NCBI GenBank assembly: GCA_965285935.1 | Contig: OZ260661.1 | Span: 48,484,001 to 48,548,000, forward strand | Source of the DNA: Ophelia neglecta | Lineage: Eukaryota | DNA length: 64,000 bases | Direction of reading: 5' to 3' | Shown here: positions 4,918 to 62,799 of the stretch, one piece after another | How the letters are laid out: each line of letters starts with the position of its first letter | Numbering within the stretch: position 1 is the first letter of the stretch | Made by a program: the position numbers and the translations under genes | The notes under the pieces: generated by a model | What the model saw: the letters and a program-made list of their open reading frames with translations, nothing else | Database searches by the model: none | What the model was told of the DNA's origin: nothing

Positions 4918-5989
4918 ACGTGGTCTAAGTTACTTGTCCATTAAGACTTTTGTGCACTAAAATGTTACGTGGACCTGTATTGATCGATAAAGTTTTAAAG
5001 TGACAGAGATTGGTGCGGCGTCGTTATGACAGACATAACTCTATTTCGACCTTAATGTCACTCCGGCCATTTTGTCTGCAGTCTGAAGATATGTTACAAA
5101 TGGGAGGGTGATGGGCATTGATGGCTTTGTCTTGTCAGCTGCTGTCTAGTCGCACATCTCTTATTATGTCTTCAGTGATAAGGTTAAGCCACAATTACCA
5201 GTACGGGAATGTCCCTCGGCGGCGTCCGAAAGCTGACAAAAACTACAGATATAATCAGACGCTTTTACTGGGAATAGCACCTTCGTCTGGAAACGAGATG
5301 CCAATATTTTGCCCTTATTACATCACCGCTGAATGCCACAAGGTTGCTAACGTGGTTGGCGATGAGAAACGTAGCAGCTGTTAATGGCGTTGCAGGTTGA
5401 CTTATGCTCGTTAAATGTATATAGAATCTGACGATTTGATTTACCTTGTATGTACTTGGAAGACAAGGGAGGGCACTCAATTATATTCGTGTACGGGTAT
5501 GTGCCGTCTTCTAAGGGTATCTTTTTTTCCATTTGCTGCCATGCCTAGGGCGTCCATTTCAGACATTTTGTATTAAATGATGAAGCTTTCCTTTCAAATC
5601 GGGATGTTGAGAAGAGCTGCTACGTGGGTTTTATCTCTTATTTTTCTCAGATTTTCATTGTTGAGGAGGCAAAAATATTTATGTGAAACTGGGCAAAATG
5701 GAGCGATTTTTGTAATCACTTCCCCTGGGCTTGGAGGCCTAGTAGCGGGGTAAGGTAGGAATGTACCTCTAGCAACTGCAATCTGTTATAACTAGGCCTA
5801 TATTTAAAAAGGTGCAGTAAATCTTTTTCTAGGATCCATCTTTGTAAAGCAAATGCCAAACCATATTTTACTAGCTCACTCACGTTATTTCAATTATGTG
5901 CACGAGGCACAACTGAAAACAATGCAAATGTATTCATTATGTACTTTTTTGTTTCAGCTCGAAAGAGACAAAAAGGCGACGAAGAACAT

Positions 5990-14000: not shown

Positions 14001-17000
14001 TGAACTTTCCACGAGTCAAATTCATTCCGCTAGACCTATACGACTGGACGTTAAATTACGCGTGCCCAGAGATCTTGTCTGGCATACCAGGACGGTGGCC
14101 ATTGCATTCTTGGAAGCAAATAATGCCCCAAGCCCACACCTGATACAAGGGGGTCGGAAAGGAAAAGACATGCATCCACAGCTGCATCCGAACACTCGCT
14201 GCAGGTTAAATTCCTCAAATTTGCTTGTGTTGCCCTATATGTTACATCCGGGCCTCGTAAAATACGACGTCAACTGCATGCATATTGATAGATGACCGAT
14301 GATCCTGGTTTGATGACAACTGTATAAATGATGTACGAACCGCAGGTGCACAACGGTACGAAACGCTGTTTATGTCTTTGCTGCTGTGCGGCAACTTATA
14401 AACGTCTCTTCTAGGGTAACGTTACATTTAAATGATTCTTGACTGAATATCACAGAAGTTTGGGTTCTCAGATCAGGGTCAAAATCAAGTTTCCTGAGCA
14501 GTGGTGGTTTGATTTGATTGTGTCGCCTTTAAGTCATAGCTGTTGTCAATTCTAGATTTACTGGTGCAGTAGGCCTATTATAAAAGTTTTATTGATTCGT
14601 ATTAAATGGACAAGTTTTTTGCCCATATCACGTCTTACTGTTTTCCATATTAAAGAAAGTTTACCTTTTAGATATGTAGAGTGGTATATAAAGGACAGTA
14701 ATACAGTACACTGCGCTTTGACGACCTGGTGCCCTGGAGATAAACCTCACATGCAGCAAAAATATTAGCAAATATTCCTCTAACATACTACCTTCTTCAA
14801 AAGATTGCCTTGTGCTCATGTGGGCATCGTGTCAAATCCAGTTATTAAACATAGGACCGGAAGTATCAGGCACAATGGAATGAAAAGGACGTTGTTTGTA
14901 TTCAAACGTGATAGCAATCCCCGAATATACGTGTTGTATTATGAGGCGAAGACCAGACCAGTCAGACAAACGAACTATGATCAGTCGGAAAGCACATGTA
15001 TATAAATAGGGTTAGGTGGGATTTGAAACCGAAGGAAATGTAATGCATATGTAATTCTCAAATAGTGGGAATCTTACTGACCTCCTGGATGTCATTGCTT
15101 AGATGTACAATGAATTGTAAACAAAAACAGGCACTGGAGGACGACTGGTGATGAGAAAAATGCAGCGAAATAAATGTATTCACTTTTGGTTGAAGAGCAT
15201 GCAGTACAGAATGAAATGTGAATAGAATCCCCGATGATTGGCAACTTCCAACGTTATGCTTATTTTTATAGTTTGCATAATGATCAGATCTTAGCTTACA
15301 CTGCCAGCATTTCCATTCGAATAAAATAAGCTACATTCGTCCATGAGTCACAACACGAGATAACATAATCATTAATGGATCGAGAAAAAGTCAATACAAT
15401 ACACCTGCTGTCGTGTGTTTTATAAATAAGTATACTTGGTGCAACACGTGCACTAAAGGGTTTTTTAATTAGATACACCCAAGGCTCGAAATGATCTTTC
15501 AGGCACGTCAAATATTGCCAATTGAAATATATTTTTGTTTCTTTATCGTCTTTAGGCTGCTGTATTCTTACAGCAATATTACATTAAGATCCTTATTTAT
15601 TGCAGATATATTGACTTATTTGATCAATTCTCGCAAACGCATTTATTAACATTGCCAATATTATCTTTACACAATTCCTCACTATTGGGCTAAGAAGCGC
15701 TAAGTTTTGAAACAAGATAAAAACACCGCATTTTGTGTGTTAGCCTTTCGGCTTAGTTTCCAAGCGACACTCTTTTTAAACTGACAAATAAGATTAGATG
15801 ATAGCTTTACCGTCTGACTTGGCGAAAAAAGAGGAATACATTAATGGATACCTGGCAGACAAAATAGAATCAGTTATCAAAATATGATTTGTTAAATCTC
15901 TCGGGAGTGGATAAACGGAAGGCAATGCAAATCATATATCAGGAATAGGTCCGACCTCTCCGGTATCAACAATCGGTCCTAACCCATCAAAAACCGACAA
16001 CTTCACCGAGTATTAATAGTTGCACAGTCGACGCTGCAACATTATATTACAAATGAATAACGCTACCATAACCCCCCTGCCATCCCGCTCCCTATGCACA
16101 CCAGCAGCAGCGCCACGTAAACAGCCCCATAGCGGCGTACGCTGACATATCTACCCGAGCCCAAAAAAACTGAAAGCACATTGTGTGTGTGGTCTAGTTT
16201 TTGTGGAAGTGTTCGCACACATTGACCATAGTCAGGGAATTGTCGGATGCGGTGCGCCTGGAACAACAACATGGCGGCATACCCTACAATTGTCATGCCG
16301 GCGTGGTCACCAGAAGACAATACTGTATCTCGAGCCATGCAGGAAACAATTTTGCTATTCTGAAGTCCATGATCAAAATAGCAGCTAGCCAAATATTGCT
16401 TAAAAGTCGGTCGCCACTAAAACGCGGTGATTGGCACAAAAACTGCATTGTTGACATCCTTGATGGCCACCGCCTCCGGACTTTGCCGCAGCAAAATAGT
16501 TAGATTCTCTATGCAGCCTTAACCGATGACAGACGGGCGATCAATGTGTAGCCTATATCTCCGAAAAAAAGTTGAGGATCGGGGGAAAATTCTTAGACCG
16601 CTCGGGAAACCGGAAACAAACTATTTGTTTACGCCTAATCTTTCGCAAGGATAATAGGCCTACCCATTATTACAGATTATAACATGGGCAGAACACCTCC
16701 AGAATAAATTTAAATGTGTTTTAGAATTTATATTGGAACTAGTGCGTTTTACAATATTAATAACTATCACGTTATAGAGAGAACAGCTTTGAAGAAAAGA
16801 AACCCTTTCATCGCCATCTTATATCACCATAAGTCGCTGTGAAACCTGCTAAGCCTATGTTGACTGTTATTGCTTTATTCTATGTGTTACAAGAACAATT
16901 TAGTTCAGCATGTCTCAAAGGCCACAGCCAGTCAGAAAAACTGAAAGTTCTCAGCACCATTGACGTCACAGGAACTGTCATAACGTGTCCAGGTGTTCTG

Positions 17001-19944: not shown

Positions 19945-20122
19945 AAGTAGCAAATGTGAATTGAGACCACTCAAGGGACTGGATAGTGGTGGTCTTATTT
20001 CAAAGTTGGTCTGTTTAGAAAGGTTATTTAATTTTGAAATTATACTGTATGTCCTTTATATAAGTGGTCTGAAATGACAGGTGGTCTGAATACAGAGATG
20101 TTCTTTAAAGAATGTTTCCCTG
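19945..20122 (+). mobile_element. Diverged copy of the TA-flanked Tc1/mariner-type MITE at 29703-29879
   Basis: Colinear similarity: gtgaattgagaccactcaagggactgg...ggtctgtttag...aggttattt...gtggtctgaa...caggtggtctgaatacagag; TIRs eroded. Confidence 0.75.
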
Positions 20123-23100
20123 CATGTCCCACAATTCACCTCAATACCACGATACTTAAGTTGGCAAATACAACAGGCCAGTGTAGGATTAATAACAGTT
20201 TATTCGCAATAGCAACATCATTATATACTATCCAGAATATTTATTTGTTGTCTGGCACAATGTTTTATTTAGCACTGGGAATAGCTCGCGGTACCTAATC
20301 AAATCATGCCTAAGAGAAGAGCAAACAACGCTTTCATTTTCAATTAATCGGTTTAACCTATTCATTACTGACATATTTCACGCCTACAATAAAATGCTTA
20401 ATGTAAATAAATGTAATTGGATTAACACTGGCACCACGCTCAATTTGGTGTAATAAGACGAAACACATATAAACCATTTATTGATCTCAAATTACCATAA
20501 AACCCCCAATAACCTCAGCCAAGCGGTTATATTTGCTTTAGCATTTAGATTAAATAATCTCTGACATGAATGTCTAAGTAATAAATTGCTTAACCACAAC
20601 ATTTATTACAAGCTGTTCAAAACGCCTGGCTTATTTCTTCAGCACGATGTTGAGCATATCCGAACACATAGCATCAATTCGTAGTACAATGGCCCATGTG
20701 TGAAAACGATTAAAAGTTCAAGCGCTGCTCTCATGAGCATAAAAATGAGATCTATTTCTCATATGGCAATATTATCCATGCTGAACCTGTATCTTGCACT
20801 ATCAGTTTTTGTTTAAAATATGGCCATATATACAGCCATTTGTTTATTCAAAAATGTAATAACTGCTGAATTTCAAGGTGCCCTTAGAGTGCCTTTATAT
20901 CCAAGATGCGTATCCAAATTCTAAATTCCCCCAAAAGCAAGATTGGCTGAGATTGTGGAGATACGTTTGCCCTTAAGTAAAATAAACAGACGAATGGAGT
21001 AATACCCTTTTTCCCGTGAAAAGATTCCAACAAAGTATGTGCTCGAACATCTACCCATCTGAATATGACAGAGCTAATCCTTTTTCGGGTAAGTAATTGT
21101 TTAGTGCATACACATTTATATATAAATATTACAACTCAGCCAAGGGGAACTTTATATCTACCCAAAAATGTATAATTATAATATGAACCTAGGCTTTAGT
21201 GTGCTAAATAAAAGCTGTTGTGGACATAATTCGGTACCGTTACAAGCCTCAATAGGACTACTTTTGGCATATAACCGCCCCGAGGTGAATGTTCAATGCA
21301 TTCCACAATTTATTACCTCTGGCGTAACTTCTAATGCACTTCCCATAATGTGTCTCTTGTTTTCTTATGACAGAAATAATAAACCAAAACCAAGCCACGG
21401 GTTTCCAAGAGTACATCATCCGTCTTCCTACAAATCACTTTATAAGCAAATGCAATCCATGGCCGCGAGGGACCTTACATGCCTGTATAAGTGTCATTTG
21501 TGCGTTGATAGAATAGGTAAATAAGGTCCTCTTGCGGTGGTCAAAATATATTCTGAAAAGGAATTGCCACGCCATTCTACGCACAAATTACAATCTTAGG
21601 TAAACATATGTATCTTTTCGAGGGGGCGGCAGGGAGGGTCTATTTGAAAAACAATGTTTGTGGCCCCTTTCAAGAAGAAAAAGAACCCCCCCCCCGCCCG
21701 TCCCTGTAAATCATGTTACATTCTTTTAAGCACCCTTTATTTCCAAATATGTGAAAGTGACATTTTTCTGTCTGTTCAGTTAGAGTCAGTAGAAACGGCA
21801 AACTACGAGCTGACAATAGTTAGATATAGGGTGGTTAATTAAGTTTACTGTATAGCGCGCTGTGTTGCTGGTTAAGGGAGGAAAATCTTGTTAAATATAA
21901 TCAGTCTGATATCGACTGTCGCTTTTTTTTTATTGAATGCCGGCCGGTACGGGAAAAGGTAGGGTTAGTAAGGCATATCCAAAGCATTTCACGCACCACC
22001 ACATCACAGCTGCTTTCCGCAGTTTATGACAAACATCTACAATAGGCAAAAACAGTTAATCCCATACGGATGATAATACTAACTTGAAACCATGCCCGAC
22101 GGTCACATCTCCCTGTAAAAGCAGATATGATTTAAATGTCCGTATTAAGAGTTAATACGCCTGGCTGCATTATTATGAGCGATAGGACCGGACTATACAG
22201 CACCTCTATGTAAAGTACATAGGGACCCCAATGTTATTTTTGGCCGCCGATCAATTTGTTGGATATTGCTGAAAAGAAGAAATCCTGGATTCCAATAGAA
22301 CAAATAATTCAGCACACCGAACAAATTTTCTTCTTTCTTTCAAATTTCTTACCTTGCCAATAAGGACTTTTTAGTTTGAAAACTGGTCATTTTTTACTAG
22401 AAAATTTTGAACAATTTCATTTCTAATTTCAAAATATGTACATTTATTTGATGTTTGCACACATTTCATCTGTACTTTCTGTAATTTTCATGGGAATTTC
22501 AAATCCCGCCTTGGATCGAACCGCGCAAAAATAAAGTGGGGTTATCAACCATGACTATTATTAACTCCTATATAAGGATATACTTTTTCTGTGTTCTACA
22601 TTCCATGGGATAAGGCTCTCTTTTGATCTTGAGTTCATGAAAAACGCGGCTATTAAACACTTGATTTTCATATGAATAGAGTGAATTTGCCCTTTTAACT
22701 ATGGCGACAGCGTTATTGGGTAGTCTGCTGTTGTGGTGATACACCAAATTATATACACGTACGTGCATTGTCAAAAGACAAATCTAATCAGACTTTAATG
22801 ATCCAGTGATTAGTACTTTGACCAATGGTTGTTTTTGTATTTCATATACATCAAACTAGCATGAAAGAAGCTATGTCCTTCCGGCTCTTTGTTGATTGAA
22901 GCTTTCTCTGGTCGACCACAGGAGTTGAAAATTGGGAGAGTATTGATGAGGACACAGACTTGCTTAGTGCATCAATAACAAACTACATTTCACACCCCTT
23001 TAATACATCGCAGTTTCATGATGTGTGTTGAAGTATTCCACGTGTTTGAGAATCGAGGACGTAGTCTTGTTCGTTTGGTAGCCAAACTTTTTTCTTTTTC

Positions 23101-29478: not shown

Positions 29479-29575
29479 TACTCAAACCTGCATTAAAGAC
29501 CACCTCCCAATTTAGACTACCTTTCTGTTCAGACCACCAATATGACTAACATTATTTACATCTGATGTAAAATAA
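29479..29575 (-). mobile_element. Truncated inverted copy of the same MITE family
   Basis: TA|TACTCAAACCTGCATTAAAGACCACCTC is the reverse complement of the right end of 29703-29879; similarity continues through ttcagaccac...atgtaaaataa. Confidence 0.7.
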
Positions 29576-29702
29576 AAAGTACTCTGGTCGTAGTGTAGCC
29601 GTAGAAGTATAGTAATTGTCAAGATGCTTTTGGAACATCATTTATTCTTAGAGATTAGGAAAGGAGCAAGCGCTAATGACAATTAGTGTGACTTTCATAA
29701 TA

Positions 29703-29879
29703 CAGTAAAACCTGTGAATTAAGACCACCTAAGGGACTGGAAAATACGGGTCTGATGGAGGTGGTCTGTTTAGACAAGTTATTTTACACTGAAAGAGTAG
29801 ACTATGGTCTTCATATTAGTGGTCTGAATAGCCAGGTGGTCGTAATACAGAGGTGGTCTTTAAGGCGCAGGTTTCACTG
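29703..29879 (+). mobile_element. Tc1/mariner (pogo/Tigger-like) MITE, 177 bp, TA TSD
   Basis: TA|CAGTAAAACCTG...CAGGTTTCACTG|TA; TIR similarity extends inward (ttaagaccacct / aggtggtctttaa); internal GTGGTC repeats. Confidence 0.88.
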
Positions 29880-30068
29880 TAGTATCGGTTTAAGTACTGT
29901 ATGTACTTGGTATTGCCTCATATGTTAGAAATGTTACTGACACTATGAGGCTTTAAATGATTGCATGTATAATATTATGAATGATAATAACATGATAATG
30001 TTCGAGTGTTATGATCGCCTATGACCAGTTTTGATGGTGATTGCAGCATATTATCATATATGGATGTA

Positions 30069-30235
30069 CATTGACACCTGTCTTATAGACCACCTCTATA
30101 TTCAGACCAACTGGTAATTCAGACCACTACTGGAATGCCATATTTCATACTTTCAATGTAAAATAACCTGCCTAAACCGACCACCCAATTATATTTCCTA
30201 GTCCCTTGGATGGTCTCAATTCACAGGTTTCACTG
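30069..30235 (-). mobile_element. Full-length inverted copy of the same MITE, 167 bp, TA TSD
   Basis: TA|CATTGACACCTG...CAGGTTTCACTG|TA; reverse complement begins cagtgaaacctgtgaattgagaccatccaagggactag, matching the start of 29703-29879. Confidence 0.85.
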
Positions 30236-33200
30236 TAATTAGCGATACTAACTACCGTCTTGCCAATATATACATTACTAATAACCTATATATATATAAT
30301 ATTATAAACATCTCTAGCGATAACGGCAGGGAGCGAAGCTCAGACGCACATGCCGAAGCAATAACCGCTTCTGGCTCAAAGGCTGTTGATTGTTGCTCCG
30401 CGAACTCAAATGTTCCCCCAATAAAATGCCCAAAGCTCCCCTCCCTCTATTGCTGACGGATAGGTAAGATCCATGCAGCTGTTCTGGCTTGTGTCTTGAT
30501 CAAATATGCTGCAAAGTCGAGGTTATGCCTTGCAAATGTCTAACTAATGATGGGTGAACTCGATACCACCAGGTATAAAATAATAGCAACCAACTGACCT
30601 TTAGCTCACCTGACCTGAGGAATTATCGCTATCTCAGACGATAAATTCAAAAAGGCTGTCGGAGATGTGCGAAAGGCCAGCCAGGGTGACATTGTGGTTA
30701 GGTATTAAACTAACTGAGAGTCTTTAAGCCTAAAAAGGTCAAGGTATATTTTTCGTTGCTGTAAAAATCTTACGATATTCTCCGCGTACGCCAAGTCATA
30801 TTCAATATTGTTGTTAAATACAGCACAGTACCATCGCTGTGCGTTTTACGTTTTCTGTCGAAAATCAAAGACTTTAAAGGTACTACGAACATGGTTAAGA
30901 AATCCACCAACTCATTGATTTATTGTTGTATTGTGATAGAGCAGTTGGGGGAAACAATGCCGTATGAAAACCATTTCCTCATTCCCGTTAATAGCTGGAG
31001 ATTATTGTTGTCTTTTAAAGCGTGGTGGGAAATGCTTCTTTGCAGTGCAAAAAGGTCATGACATTTAATAATGTGGGCGATAATAGGACAGGCGATTGAG
31101 TCATTTTATTAATTTAAATATGTAAGTTATATAATGACCTCCTTTGCACTGCAGAAGGCATAAAAAGAAATTCGACTGTAGATTGTGGCGACTACATGTA
31201 TAAAATTATTCTTCTTGGTGGTGAATGAGGCATCAGGTCCGAAATAAATACTTTACTCGGCAATTGAATGAAATAGATTCCTCTTCAATAGTACTGGCCG
31301 GCAGCTGAGAGAACCAACGATTAAACTCCAGGCCTAGAGGTATCTTTATCAGATTTGCAACAAGAAAAAGGTCAGACCTGATATCAGTACCCTGTGGTAG
31401 TTGGCAACGATGAATATTATCAATGAACATCTCCCCTGGGTTAGGCCGAAGAGAACGGAAACATGCAGCTAATCAGTACCACACCGTGTTCGTCTATTGG
31501 ATAATACCACCTTCTTGGGAAGCTCAATTGAAAGTAAGTTGAGCCAGCATCAGCAATGAATTCATGCGTGCACGTACACAAGAAAAAACCCTAGCTAAAG
31601 TAATGATGCTTTTCGGGATTAGGAATAAAACTCAGAGCTTGGCTCAATGGAATTTCATACTCGATACCTGTAGCAAGGTTAATAGAAAAAAAAGAAGACT
31701 TATCTATTTGTAAGTGTTACCAGACGTGTGTTGGCAAAATAAGTGGGCATAGGCTTAAATTTTGAACCTTAAAAAGCCGCATTGCCGAACTTGCTACAGC
31801 GATGTTAGCATTGTCTCCAAGAAACGAGCGAAAATAGAGGTTATTTGAAGATTTACTTTCACATTTCGCATGCATGTATTCTTCTAACACACACTTTCCA
31901 GTCAACGGCATTAATTATACATTTAATTTCCGCCAAGAGACGGCTGGTAGACGTTTTAGGTTTAGCGAGGCAATCCCTTGCAGGGGAGGAGTTCAGGCCT
32001 GTGCCACACTGACAAAAAAAACAGACAAACAAACCGAGAGGTGAACCATTAATGAAAGCGGTTTGATCCGGCCGACATTTTGTGTCTATTTTCTTACTCA
32101 TCTTTAAGGAATTTTTCATACTACTTAATACATGGGATGGATTCTTTTAAACAAACGTTTAGCTAACAGCTCCTGGTTTTGGTTTATACCAAATTATACT
32201 AAGAGCTATACAATGTGAGTCTGACAACTTTGACGAGTGTATAAATGACACGCTATTCAGCGCCAGCCTCGGTTGGGCAATAGTCATTCATTGAGTCTTT
32301 TACCGGAAGTCTTTATATTTGAATGAAACCTGTAACCTGACATCCGGTAAGTACGCAGCTATTTTCAGAGGTCAAGTGATAATAATTCGATATTTTAGGC
32401 AGGGTAACGTCAGTACTCCGGAAAAAGGAGTTTGTATTGTTATATATTCTGCCAGTCAGAAAAAGAGTGATATATATAACGGGGAGTTCCGTGAGGATGG
32501 TTAGAGGAAATGTTGCATAGAATTTTTTAACGATGTATAGCACTTAAAAAGATGAGTAAAATGCGACCAGATATAGCCTAATAAAAATGATCATAGCGTA
32601 CAATGGGCCTAATACCCTTTAACCATTGTTAATTGTGATGCATGTCAACCGGGCACTTCATTGCTACAAAATTTACTTTAGAAGACATATATTCTCCGGT
32701 TCAACCAGAGATATACACTGTCCAGGGTTCCTGTTTATTTAAAGTTAGAGCCGGAGGTATCAACATGGAAGGAATGTGAGAGATGCACACGTGTATTCAC
32801 AGGTGCTATTAATCTGACGATATATCTACCAAGTGTATTCAGAGGTCACTATCGGAGCAGGTAAGGCTGATAGTAACAGAGTAATGCACTGTAGTTTGCC
32901 GCCTCAGATGTACTGTACATGGTGTGAAGATTATACTCATGCTTGGGTACAATTCAATAGTACAGAGATCTCTATTTCCTTAATGATCATGCAAGACAAA
33001 TGTATCAAAGTAAAGCCTGAGGTTAAAAGGGCTATCAAGGGTATTTGCTAGTTAAATTTTGCAGGTGTCTAATGCGATTTATGAAGGATAATGTTGACAC
33101 CGACAGACGTTTAAGGGAGTCTTTTTCGATGCGTTGTTACAGTGTGCTAGGCACGTTGCTCTGTTTATTGTGACACTAGAATCGCTTTTAGTTGAAACCA

Positions 33201-57794: not shown

Positions 57795-58133
57795 TCAAAA
57801 AAAAAACTTCGGTCGGTCTTTTGCGGAGTATGCCACTCGTCTATGGAATGATTTGCCATTGTCCATTCGATGTGCCCCGCCAATAACTACTTTTAACACT
57901 GCTTTGAAAACCTACTTTTTTAGAGCTTCTTTTTATGTGTAATATGTGCTTAGTTCTAGTCAATTCAATACTTTGGTTTAAATTTTAATCTTATCTTTTA
58001 TTCTTTTCAGGTTTTATGTGTTTCCTTGTCTTAGCTGTAATCTAGTCATGTTTTAATTATTGTAAAGCGCTTTTGAGCATATACTTTATTGAAAATGCGC
58101 TATATCTAAAAGCCAATAAAAAAAAATAAAAAA
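57795..58133 (+). mobile_element. 5'-truncated L2/CR1-group LINE, 3' end (ORF2 C-terminus, 3'UTR and A-rich tail)
   Basis: 57811-57942 encodes GRSFAEYATRLWNDLPLSIRCAPPITTFNTALKTYFFRASFYV*, matching the L2 ORF2 end 'GxRAFSxxAPxLWNxLPxxIRxAxSLxxFKxxLKTxLF'; then a T-rich UTR, the L2-type motif TGTAAAGCGCTTTTGAG...AAAATGCGCTATAT (58061-58105) and an AATAAAAAAA tail. Confidence 0.88.
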
Positions 58134-58767
58134 TGGAAAAATGGGGCTGCAATTATTACTACTCAAAGCTCGTCATATTATTGCATTTAAAGAATGTACC
58201 TTTAGGTAAAAGTTGATATGAATATAAGTGAAGTTCAATGATAAAGTTTAATGGGCAACCGCTATCGTTTTTGTGACAAACACAACGTGGAGCAAAACAG
58301 ACGCCACTAGTTACTAATTGTGTTTGTAATATTATTTGCGAAAAGTATAAAAACGCCAAATGGCTGTCTATGATATAGGCTTCCTGTATAGTATTTGGCA
58401 CTGCTCGTGTAGAAGGCTCCTACACAGAGAAATGCCAATGTGTAAAGCTAAAATGTGTCCGATCGTAGAGTATCTAAGCATTATTAACCCGAATCGTTCA
58501 AAACGATTGTAAAATCGTGGGCGTACGCTGACCGGTTAGTGAGAACCACCGACTGCAAATTGGTCTGGCCTTACAGCGTAAATCTGATTGCCTAAGTCAG
58601 GCATGGAGCATGTTTTATTATGGCACGGTAATTTGTAAACACCGACCTCAAACGATAGCTTGCTGGACATGCGCTCCGTTCAATATATGCCATTTTTCCG
58701 TCCCCGCCCATAAACCCCATCTCGTATACTCATGCCCATGAACAGCCACTATGGGAGAAATCATAAC

Positions 58768-59384
58768 TACGGTAGCCCATCGTGCGAAATTTGTAAGGGT
58801 AAAGCTCCAACAATTACGCGCGCCTCGTGGACGGCAACATTTTCCTTACACCCCAAGGTGAGTGAATCTGTTTTATCTACCAATTTATTGCTTGACAGTC
58901 TTTGTGTAATGCATCAAACGAAAGTTAGGAAATTCGTTGTCAATCCTGTGTACTGGCTTGATTTATCGAGATCGCTATTTGTGAACAATTCTCGAGCAAC
59001 ATCAAGCGTGGGCGATAGTAGGAGAAATAACACCTTAATTTCCCGTTGCTGTCGGCTTGGTGCACTTTTCGAAGCTGAAACTTAGTAGACAGTAGCTACT
59101 GATAACTTTTAACATATCCATGGTATCTGCTCAGTTTAGAATGATGCGGTTTTTTTATCCTAGCCGTTCAAATAAGTTTCCGATGCGCGTGAATGTAAGG
59201 GCACGGCGCGCGTGTAAGAAAGGGCATTAGCCTAGTAAAGGGAAAGTAAAAGTAAGGCGACGCACTTTCCGTGACTGTTGCTGTTCAGTTCCAGGCTTAG
59301 AAAATGGTTCTTTTGCTATTTTTTACGTACAAATGTTCGACCTCTGGCACGAAGTCACTGATTTAAGGCCATGTTTTCCATAGA
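58768..59384 (+). repeat. Left TIR of the foldback element
   Basis: Reverse-complement match to 60463-61081; explains the near-identical peptides of ORFs 58732-59085(+) and 60764-60991(-). Confidence 0.95.
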
Positions 59385-60462
59385 TTCAATTTCGTGCAGA
59401 TCGTACTATTTTTATAATCACGGTTTAAATAGCGCAATTGTGTATTTGTGGACTGTATTTAAGTGTCATTACTAGGAACGAGAGTCATATATATTTATAG
59501 ATATATTCAAAGACGCATATATACATAAAATGTTACCCTAATTGTTATGGCTGCTGTGCACTAAAAAGCGTGCCTGCAAGGAATCGGAAACCAGAGGCCC
59601 TATGATGAAGTTTTAAGTTTACAACGGCAGAATTGTCTATATTGCAAGTTGCGTTTCTCGTTTATGTTGACTTTAAACTTTTTATTTCACAACTTCATCT
59701 GTATTTTATTGTTCGATAGCTACTCTAGTAGAAGTTTAAGCCTTATACTTTTGTCTTATTGGTGATTAGTCAAACCAAGGATGTCTGGTATACAGCATAC
59801 CACGTTCTTCGAGACATATATTTTTTAAAATGTATTATCAAATCACAGACCACCATCACTGACAGGTGCAGTGTACTTCCCTTCGTAAAAACGCATATTG
59901 TGTTCACATTATAGAAGTTGAATGCGCATATATGAAGAAGACAGGTCATTTCGAGAAAGCATTTTACTGGTACAATTGATTAACAAGACTTGTATATACT
60001 CGAGAGTATTAACATTAAAGTTTGTTCAGGAATCGATAATTCGAGCCATGTGCTTTTTTATGTTTTTTTGGTCAATGTTCGTTCAGCAAAATAACGTTTG
60101 TTTAGAACTTGTGTTATACAATAAAATGGGAAAATGTTCTACTTCTTCTCATATTACATGTTAACAAATATGTATGTGCTATCAAGACGGCGTATCTTCA
60201 CAGAGAAAATCATATCCACCGGGTTTTCACTTGGCCCCACTCACACTCTTTGGTGAGACATAAGTTTCGACTCATCGGTCTTATAATACTGCCCTGTTCA
60301 TGTCGGGCAAAGGATCCATACCTATAAAAATATAAGTTTATAGTCAGAGAATTAGCAATAGCTACAGGTAATTACATGTATATATATATATATAAAACGT
60401 AGTTTTTAAACTGAAATACAAGCAGTCATAAATTTATCAATGAAAATAAGTTTTATTGTGAT

Positions 60463-61081
60463 TCTATGGAAAACATGGCCTTAAATCAGTGACTTTTTGG
60501 CAAAGGTCGAACATTTGTACGTAAAAGATCGCAAAAGAACCACTTTCCAGGAGCCAGGAACTGAACAGCAACAATCACAGAAAGTGCGTTGCCTTACTTT
60601 TACGTTCCCTTTACTCGGCTAGTGCCCTTTCTTACACGCGCGCCGTGCCCTTACATACACGCGCATCGGAAACTTATTTGAACGGCTAGGATAAAAAAAC
60701 CGCATCATTCTAAATTGAGCAGATACCATGGATATGTTAACAGTTATCAGTAGCTACTGTCTACTAAGTTTCAGCTTCGAAAAGTGCACCAAGCCGACAG
60801 CAACGGGAAATTAAGGTGTTATTTCTCCTACTATCGCCCACGCTTGATGTTGCTCGAGAATTGTTCACAAATAGCGATCTCGATAAATCAAGCCAGTACA
60901 CAGGATTGACAACGAATTTCCTAACTTTCGTTTGATGTATTACACAAAGACTGTCAAGCAATAAATTGGTAGATAAAACAGATTCACTCACCTTGGGGTG
61001 TAAGGAAAATGATGCCGTCCACGAGGCGCGCGTAATTGTTGGAGCTTTACCCTTACAAATTTCGCACGATGGGCTACCGTA
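60463..61081 (-). repeat. Right TIR of the foldback element
   Basis: Reverse-complement match to 58768-59384. Confidence 0.95.
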
Positions 61082-62799
61082 ATAACACTCTTTCTACATT
61101 TCCCTTTCGGACTTACTGAGCGGTTAATTGACCCTTGTTCAATTGGTGTTATGTGTTTTTTGATATTGAAATCAAATATTTTGGTTAGTATATAGATTTA
61201 TGTAAGTATAGGGGATAACATTTACAAATTGTATAATCTGGTAAGCTGCGGTAACTATTGATGTTAGTTTTCGACCGGATGCACTGATTAAAAACACAAC
61301 AGTAAACAACACACTTATATAGGATGGACACATGCACGTTCAAAAGCCGCAAGTCACACGAATGTGTGACAAGGACATATTGTACATTACTCCGGAAGTG
61401 ATATGGCAATCAGGCTTAGGGTAAAAGTCCCTCTGACTTTCATCATGAAACCTGAGCCATTGCCAGCTGTCTCGGCTAAATTCTTATGGACTGCTGCATT
61501 CAAAAAAACACGACATGGTGGCTAAGACAGTCAGGATGTTGAAAAGTCAATAGACTATCATCGCAACAGTCACGGCAAAACTAGACTACAAACGATTCTA
61601 ATTCCTGATAAAATAAAGTATATACCATCGGAACACTCGTCTAAAGTTCTGGTCTAGTATCCACGTATCCATGATCATCCATTGAACAGTGTCGAACATG
61701 CTTGGGCCTAAAGACGCTAGCCTTGGTGTCCCGATACCACTGAGGAATATTTGCCTTGTCCGAATGTATTTTTTAAAAAAATGTCATAGAAGAAATAGGA
61801 CTCGAAATAGTGCGGCTTTTTTAACAAGAATTTATGTAGACTGTTTCATGACTCACTCTACTATATATTTAGAGCGGTTCTTTGTTCGTTTCGTTTCGAG
61901 TTATTGCATTTAAAATCCATATCAAAAGTCTATATGACAAGAATATTCTGGTGGTAATCAACTCCTCCCTCAGACGACTCTCGTTAGAATTAGCACCCCT
62001 TTTCGATAACAACCGGAACCCTAAGCATGTGATCACACATGGCATGGAAATCATTTCCTGCGTACCGAGTATTGCCAAACTTTTATCAGTTCTAATCCAG
62101 CATTGTATGTGTGATCCAAGGAGCACAACCGGACTGATCGCATGTTGACGTGGTGTCAGTATTACACTGCGAAAGAATTAAAGTGTAAACCGAAATTAAT
62201 GTAGTCAGCCTGAATAATTATGTCCGTTTATCATTATTATTTACTATCATACATTATATAAAGATGTGTCTGGATTTTGGCGATCATACTAAATTTTCAA
62301 CATGTTATTTTGCACAGACAATAATGACATTGTCGTTTTTGCTAGAATGGTTTGGGTGTCAAATAAATCATATATTTGGGTAAAATAATGTGCTCTATTG
62401 TATACACCTCTCTTGTTTTCATCACCGATGTCACCTGCCTATATATTTTAAATGTGAACTATGATAGCCAGCTTAGCCTGAGTTTTTTTTAGTCATATTT
62501 GCACTTTGAAGTTTGTTAGAATGTCTCTATACATTTGACAAGAGTCCCGCATTTTATTAATTGATTTCATGAAATAAAGTGATAGGCAGTCATATTTGTG
62601 CGACCAGTGAGGTTACATTAGATCTGCCGGACAAGACTGCAGCTGATATCACCAGGAAGAAAGCTCCGTTTATTGGGTTTTGTCAAAACTTGTAATTAAA
62701 TTGTCTGAGTCTTTGACTACATATAAAATACAAGGTAGAAAAGCTAAAACTGCAAATGCGGTAAATCCACCTTTTATAATAGCCCCAAGACAAACACAT

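Follow-up and report, generated by a model that had tools for sequence, protein, structure and literature searches.

A 2314-bp non-autonomous transposon of Ophelia neglecta and its putative P-fold transposase with an inserted exonuclease domain

The window analyzed here, a 64,000-nucleotide stretch of the Ophelia neglecta genome (contig OZ260661.1), contains a 2314-bp unit with long inverted arms between two copies of ATAAC, and this locus raises the question of what kind of transposon the unit is and by which enzyme it was moved. A reading made from the sequence alone had described a foldback element with a 5-bp target-site duplication (TSD) that fitted no superfamily cleanly. With a probability of about 0.8, we conclude that the unit is a deletion derivative which was likely moved in trans by a transposase predicted to have the fold of the P-element transposase and an exonuclease inserted in it. 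Papers are cited by their PMC numbers.

The window element and its family

The element occupies window positions 58768-61081, starts with TACGGTAGCCC and ends with GGGCTACCGTA, with termini TACGG…CCGTA (TAC…GTA) and ATAAC abutting each side. Its terminal inverted repeats (TIRs), about 621 and 623 bp long, are 98% identical over 530 nt (58768-59297 and 60552-61081) and 91% identical in an extension (59300-59388 and 60459-60547). The longest stop-to-stop frames within the unit are 105 aa (located in the TIR) and 80 aa, and only short remnants of the first and last transposase exons are left of the parent coding sequence. The coordinates and the arm alignment thus agree with the sequence-only reading on the unit, its termini, its arms, its exact flanking repeats and its lack of coding capacity. 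The long arms also fit the label "Foldback" used there, whereas the unit itself arose from a coding element by internal deletion.

A search of the animal's own genome (762 Mb) with the arm's first 303 bp as the query gave 40 scored matches from 55 candidates, which resolved to at least 24 loci (family A), hence the sequence is not single-copy. Both termini were found in 21 of the 24 loci, and all 21 copies were flanked by an exact 5-bp TSD (20 different 5-mers), with a duplication of 6 bp or more in 0/21. The three loci outside this count were two without a second end within ~20 kb and one in which an end had lost 26 bp. The middle three bases of the target 5-mers were A/T-rich, with a weak C before and a weak G after. 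Four rearranged copies (L043, L044, L124, and L125) had two same-side ends or arms extended to ~1.1 kb and still carried 5-bp TSDs; since the copies with same-side ends keep these duplications, either end alone seems to be enough for mobility.

The insertion site in the window was searched for in the contigs of three public runs; these runs come from a single sample, possibly the source of the assembly. The filled junction was present in the contigs of 3/3 runs. In addition, an empty branch departs from the window after position 58752 and reads C-ATAAC-ACTCTTTC into the right flank, with a single ATAAC, no TA, and also without positions 58753-58761. The single ATAAC of this empty allele fixes the length of the duplication at 5 bp, as the sequence-only reading had proposed. 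The insertion site is probably polymorphic, and the empty branch may alternatively be an excision scar. The same look-up for the long copy L032 revealed no loose end at the junction, and rows were dropped at a nearby repeat.

The TA at both termini had left room for an element that duplicates TA and has CGGTAG ends, for an inverted duplication of local origin, or for an assembly artefact. The TA-flanked reading was rejected by the empty allele (C-ATAAC-ACTC), which has no TA, and by the 5-bp duplications outside the TA in 21/21 copies; the sister families described below start with CAC or CAG, and the filled junction recurs in all three runs. Taken together we regard this group of explanations as practically discounted.

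Four long coding copies with the same ends were found in the same genome (8364-8381 bp, hereafter the 8.4-kb parent element; mutual identity 99.5-99.75%), in agreement with the earlier suggestion of an autonomous partner acting in trans from elsewhere in the genome. The window unit maps onto the long element as four collinear segments with 91-95% identity and is an internal-deletion derivative of this 8.4-kb DNA transposon. An intermediate copy (L042, 3268 bp) is 98.0% identical to the window unit and differs from it by the 820-bp and 124-bp deletions, and the main 5.1-kb deletion carries a 3-bp microhomology. The sister copy L035 shares all three deletions, shows 15 mismatches in 2314 bp, and lies at another site with another TSD, which indicates that the deleted form itself has moved. 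The near identity to L035 and the empty allele also support the view that the insertion in the window is young. The arm difference of ~3% was discarded as an age clock, since most of the differences are common to L035, that is, inherited, and do not date the insertion. Within a subfamily the left arm is ~97% identical to the right arm, compared with ~94% for arms of different subfamilies, which suggests homogenization over time.

Fold and conservation of the transposase

The predicted transposase gene of the parent element consists of five GT-AG exons encoding 1557 aa, and a second, convergent gene consists of a frame with seven C2H2 zinc fingers. In the four long copies no stop was found in transposase exons 1-3 and none in the zinc-finger frame. 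YqaJ was the only Pfam domain identified in the transposase (E-value 4.8e-7), and a lambda exonuclease profile matched as well (E-value 1.6e-5). A coiled coil and this YqaJ/lambda-exonuclease domain form an insert between the first and the second catalytic aspartate (D1 and D2), and YqaJ sits in one frame with D2, the DxxH motif, and the catalytic glutamate. Between subfamilies the ratio of non-synonymous to synonymous polymorphism (pN/pS) in transposase exons 1-2 was 0.24-0.34.

Relatives of the transposase comprised 294 clusters at E-values up to 1e-30, and conservation was counted over 63 homologues with a length of 1050 aa or more. The catalytic residues were kept in 54/54 (D316), 60/63 (D855), 60/60 (D1249 and H1252), and 56/57 (E1419) of the rows, and the residues of the nuclease motif D-ExK in 62/63 (D610), 61/63 (E626), and 62/63 (K628); all nine test sites were kept in 41 of the 45 rows that span them. 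From this co-conservation in sequence the nuclease would probably be an active part of the transposition cycle.

The fold was compared using an AlphaFold2 model of the homologue P0053 (predicted local distance difference test, pLDDT, 85.9) and a model of the family's own exon-3 product (pLDDT 82.0). The predicted structure of P0053 matched the P transposase (6p5a) on both sides of the insert with a Z-score of 27.4 (root-mean-square deviation, rmsd, 3.3; 348 residues), compared with 10.6 for HzTransib, 9.8 for RAG1, and 8.7 for Hermes in the same list, and it matched lambda-type exonucleases with Z-scores of 14-15. The predicted exon-3 product gave a Z-score of 24.4 with 6p5a (rmsd 3.4; 290 residues), compared with 8.7, 8.5, and 6.7 in the comparison that addressed Transib/RAG and 5.2 or less for intasomes. 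In this model an exonuclease domain (Z-score 15.5) precedes the P core, which matches from P residue 242 onwards; this places the insert just behind the first catalytic strand, and in the alignment to 6p5a residues 242-569 the GTP-binding-like insertion appears to be retained. The models thus predict a P-element fold for the transposase and a lambda-type exonuclease within its catalytic core. Transib, hAT, Academ, and MULE, the candidates named from the sequence alone, had missed this relative. At the sequence level the cores of the lineage and of canonical P transposases do not align reliably, a PDB sequence search with the part after the nuclease gave no match, and a profile search returned exonucleases and coiled coils only and did not recover the P transposase. 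Atlas features placed the protein at 0.92 with P clusters, at low recognition.

Sister families and relation to known transposons

A search of the same genome with the C-terminal core of the transposase gave 28 matches, 24 of them outside family A, and the flanks of 11 of these 24 were fetched. Among the ten loci fetched first, eight had end pairs and represent families B-F (7.0-14.6 kb, arms of 66-472 bp), all of them with a 5-bp TSD (8/8); the other two, which had no end pair within the 20 kb fetched, were left out of the TSD count. An extra family-D copy, equal to another one in length and TSD, was counted as a duplicate; two family-D copies of 14.6 kb share one TSD and are probably segmental duplicates. 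The families start with CACAGTG, CACGCTG, CACGGTG, CACGCC, and CAGGG, that is, with CAC in B-E and CAG in F. They are 28-37% identical, share both active sites, and each of the five has a convergent C2H2 frame; all nine key residues were found in 9/10 of the loci fetched first. A family-B element (L079 and L080, G000 C8:33511902-33520050) has perfect 247-bp arms, a 5-bp TSD, and the start CACAGTG, which is the recombination signal sequence (RSS) heptamer (PMC1131882). Several family-D copies are located near a contig end at G000 C7:110.05-110.21 Mb (L087-L090, L119-L120), one of them with a 1.7-kb inverted duplication.

Named homologues came from the bivalve Mercenaria, the gastropod Batillaria, the annelid Owenia, and amphioxus (Branchiostoma); of 20 clusters that were queried, 4 bore a species name. 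The source names of the homologues were only hypothetical, uncharacterized, or YqaJ-domain protein. On metagenome contigs, C2H2 frames were located downstream on the opposite strand in 4/10 loci, most of the other contigs ending too early, and none of the ten loci had both termini. None of 98 candidate viral contigs encoded a relative.

Canonical P-like loci of the same genome were used as a control. Their transposase frames contain whole P domains and no YqaJ, and the flanks of 10 of 20 matches were fetched, of which 2/10 were scorable, both with a 7-bp TSD. These two (L111:1115-8048 and L112:1531-8134, at G000 C5:114.24 Mb and C2:23.63 Mb) look like canonical P elements, measure 6.6-6.9 kb, and have short TIRs. 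Both also contain a second, convergent frame (340-365 aa), which may serve marine P elements as an accessory gene; its equivalents in L110 and L113 gave no Pfam match.

No THAP domain was matched in exon 1 of the predicted transposase gene or in L126, where an unannotated upstream exon is possible, nor in 18 homologues, some of which are possibly incomplete at the N-terminus. A regular-expression scan revealed an N-terminal CxxC..HxxxxH pattern in some transposases (families A and B, P0002, and P0005) and did not find it in families C-F.

The lineage resembles the P superfamily (P element, 1360/Hoppel, Galileo, and THAP9) in its predicted helix-turn-helix, split RNase H fold, and helical insertion, in its D-D-E residues with DxxH, in its internally deleted non-autonomous copies, in its Galileo-like long arms, and in the CA start of five of the six families. 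Members of the P superfamily have TSDs of 7-9 bp and an N-terminal THAP domain (PMC7776569, PMC3698922, PMC4168063), and the P transposase has a spacing of 73 between D230 and D303, a GTP cofactor, and a 17-nt staggered donor cut (PMC7776569). The lineage differs by its 5-bp TSD, the missing THAP match, the TAC start of family A, the marginal sequence similarity, the D1-D2 distance of 509-587 aa, which is filled by the coiled coil and the lambda-type exonuclease, a second insert before DxxH, and the separate convergent C2H2 gene. Owing to its TSD length and the missing THAP match we did not file it as a member of the P superfamily, despite its P-like working.

P elements follow a CA…TG terminus rule. 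The clear P fold, the CA start of five families, and the presence of homologues in well-annotated genomes such as those of Mercenaria and Branchiostoma would fit an ordinary explanation, in which these are divergent members of the P superfamily that are already in Repbase or Dfam, with the nuclease and the fingers as known accessories; lambda-type nucleases are indeed known from KolobokE and ISL2EU (PMC9587614, PMC4482050). However, the 7-9 bp TSD of the superfamily, seen as 7 bp in both scorable P-like copies of this genome, and homologues without transposon names point the other way. Furthermore, no such design was described in the open papers searched, including the available part of PMC5718144, a scope that excludes supplements, Repbase, Dfam, and subscription journals. 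We consider this explanation possible, although clearly less than an even chance.

The 5-bp TSD together with CAC heptamers defines Transib (PMC1131882), and the lineage shares the former with Transib/RAG elements and the CAC start in its sister families (CACAGTG in family B); RAG-like elements also have two convergent genes (PMC7204232). Membership in this group is nevertheless very improbable, given the far higher Z-scores with the P transposase for both models and the invariant DxxH signature. In addition, the second gene encodes C2H2 fingers and is not RAG2-like, and family A starts with TAC.

ISL2EU elements have GG-type ends, and are like the lineage in being TIR transposons with a YqaJ exonuclease. 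In ISL2EU, however, the transposase is of the PHIS type with THAP, helix-turn-helix, and DDE regions and YqaJ is located in a second open reading frame, its role being described as unknown in PMC4482050, whereas here YqaJ lies inside the P-like enzyme. KolobokE has its nuclease on the downstream side of its transposase domain, a TTAA TSD, and RR..YY ends (PMC9587614), in contrast to the nuclease between D1 and D2, the variable 5-bp TSD, and the YA ends of the lineage. IS3EU/GingerRoot elements share TA..TA termini with the window element but have a 6-bp TSD and an integrase-like transposase (PMC10045372), and no 6-bp TSD was present among the 21 copies.

The features of the window element are listed in Table 1. 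Elsewhere in the window, positions 58248-58322 show an allelic replacement in all three public runs, and a high-depth repeat fragment lies upstream of the element at 57826-58119. Nested inverted repeats resembling miniature inverted-repeat transposable elements are located near a TA-rich tract at 29490-30237 and 19955-20125, with relatives beside a family-D copy on C1, and a dispersed, diverged repeat family was found at 15845, 29083, 48703, 53769, and 63524.

Table 1. Features of the non-autonomous element (window positions) and locations of the long parent copies
Feature	Position	Strand	Basis or remark
Left TSD copy, ATAAC	58763..58767	.	single copy in empty allele
Whole non-autonomous element, 2314 bp	58768..61081	-	reverse to parent transposase gene; parent map
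TIR of ~621 bp, zinc-finger-gene side of parent, begins TACGG	58768..59388	+	parent positions 8381-7761
Non-coding remnant upstream of parent C2H2 gene	59389..59446	+	comparison with parent
820-bp deletion, removed C2H2 gene	junction 59446/59447		comparison with parent and L042
Remnant of spacer between convergent parent genes	59449..60240	.	95% to parent 6890-6519 and 6399-5975
Further 124-bp deletion in spacer remnant	near 59822		comparison with parent and L042
Last ~50 bp of predicted final transposase exon, including stop codon	60241..60293	-	parent 5925-5974
3-bp microhomology at 5.1-kb deletion that removed transposase	60291-60293	-	comparison with parent
First 29 bp of predicted transposase exon 1, ATG at 60319	60291..60319	-	comparison with parent
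TIR of ~623 bp, transposase-start side of parent	60459..61081	-	arm alignment, parent map
Right TSD copy, ATAAC	61082..61086	.	exact match to left copy
Parent copies L031-L034	G000 C12:33493884, C7:27752554, C5:72622380, C2:66407092

Proposed mechanism and significance

According to the proposed mechanism the DDE core would excise the element and join it at target positions separated by 5 bp; judged by the anatomy of the copies, such cut-and-paste transposition with a 5-bp target stagger is very probable. Lambda exonuclease digests DNA 5' to 3' from double-strand ends. The inserted exonuclease would most likely resect the 5' strands at the cut ends, with the donor break as the site that we prefer, where resection would favor homology-templated repair of the gap and restore donor copies, and where aborted gap repair might give rise to the nested deletion series and the homogenized arms. 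This role at the donor break is put forward tentatively, as the one that we favor over trimming of the ends or another role.

With the same element and enzyme, the nuclease could instead trim the non-transferred strand of the transposon's own ends and generate a long 3' overhang as in P. Lying directly behind the first catalytic strand, the insert adjoins the active site, the different TSD length points to an altered geometry, and the P element needs long staggered ends, produced by its 17-nt cut (PMC7776569). The apparent retention in the model of the GTP-binding-like insertion, which handles the P end, suggests however that the core may make the same cut as P, and we regard end trimming as unlikely.

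The convergent C2H2 protein may bind the long arms and thereby stand in for the missing THAP domain, a guess from that missing domain to which we assign an even chance. It could also be a regulator, an anti-silencing factor, or a modulator of host genes, with the ends being bound by the N-terminus of the transposase. The CxxC..HxxxxH pattern at some N-termini and an arm in which no motif array was found fit such a regulator, whereas families C-F, in which that pattern was not found, all keep the C2H2 gene, as expected for an end binder; a regulatory role thus appears rather improbable.

Several points weigh against the reading of the window unit as a derivative moved by a P-fold transposase with an active exonuclease. 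Pfam PF21787, the RNase H domain of P, matched the second half only, after the insert, and was above the cut-off in 1/18 homologues. A profile without the insert matched the four P-like proteins of the genome at E-values of 0.005, 0.008, 0.17, and 2.1, compared with 0.068 for a shuffled decoy. With this marginal sequence similarity, predicted structure is the main basis of the link to P. Identity between the extant long copies and the non-autonomous ones is only ~94%, so that the direct progenitor belongs to a sister subfamily not found here, and it is assumed that the extant long copies moved the window element. Deletions at microhomologies are usual in DNA transposons that lack a nuclease and do not single out resection. 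A repeated motif in the arm, considered as possible C2H2 sites, was not above chance (140 of 300 shuffles reached the observed count), and pN/pS of the zinc-finger gene was 0.33-0.60, based on few and non-independent changes. Lastly, this is the only genome in which TSDs and termini were tested.

Going beyond the window, we suggest, at somewhat less than even odds, that these elements represent an undescribed superfamily-level lineage, sister to P, in molluscs, annelids, and cephalochordates, whose transposase would carry its own phage-type exonuclease in the RNase H core and resect the ends it cuts, whose ends would be recognized by a separate C2H2 protein, and which would have converged on the 5-bp TSD and CAC ends of Transib/RAG-like elements. 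At least two further groups of transposons carry lambda-type nucleases; here the nuclease lies within the transposase core, and dozens of divergent homologues have retained the two active sites together. Given four near-identical open copies and a probably polymorphic insertion, a single protein is enough to test the question. A P-type core with a 5-bp TSD and no THAP match bears on the evolution of target geometry and of end recognition. Repeats that were labeled Transib or "unknown" on the basis of 5-bp TSDs and CAC ends may belong to the new lineage, and many invertebrate "YqaJ domain-containing proteins" may be transposases.

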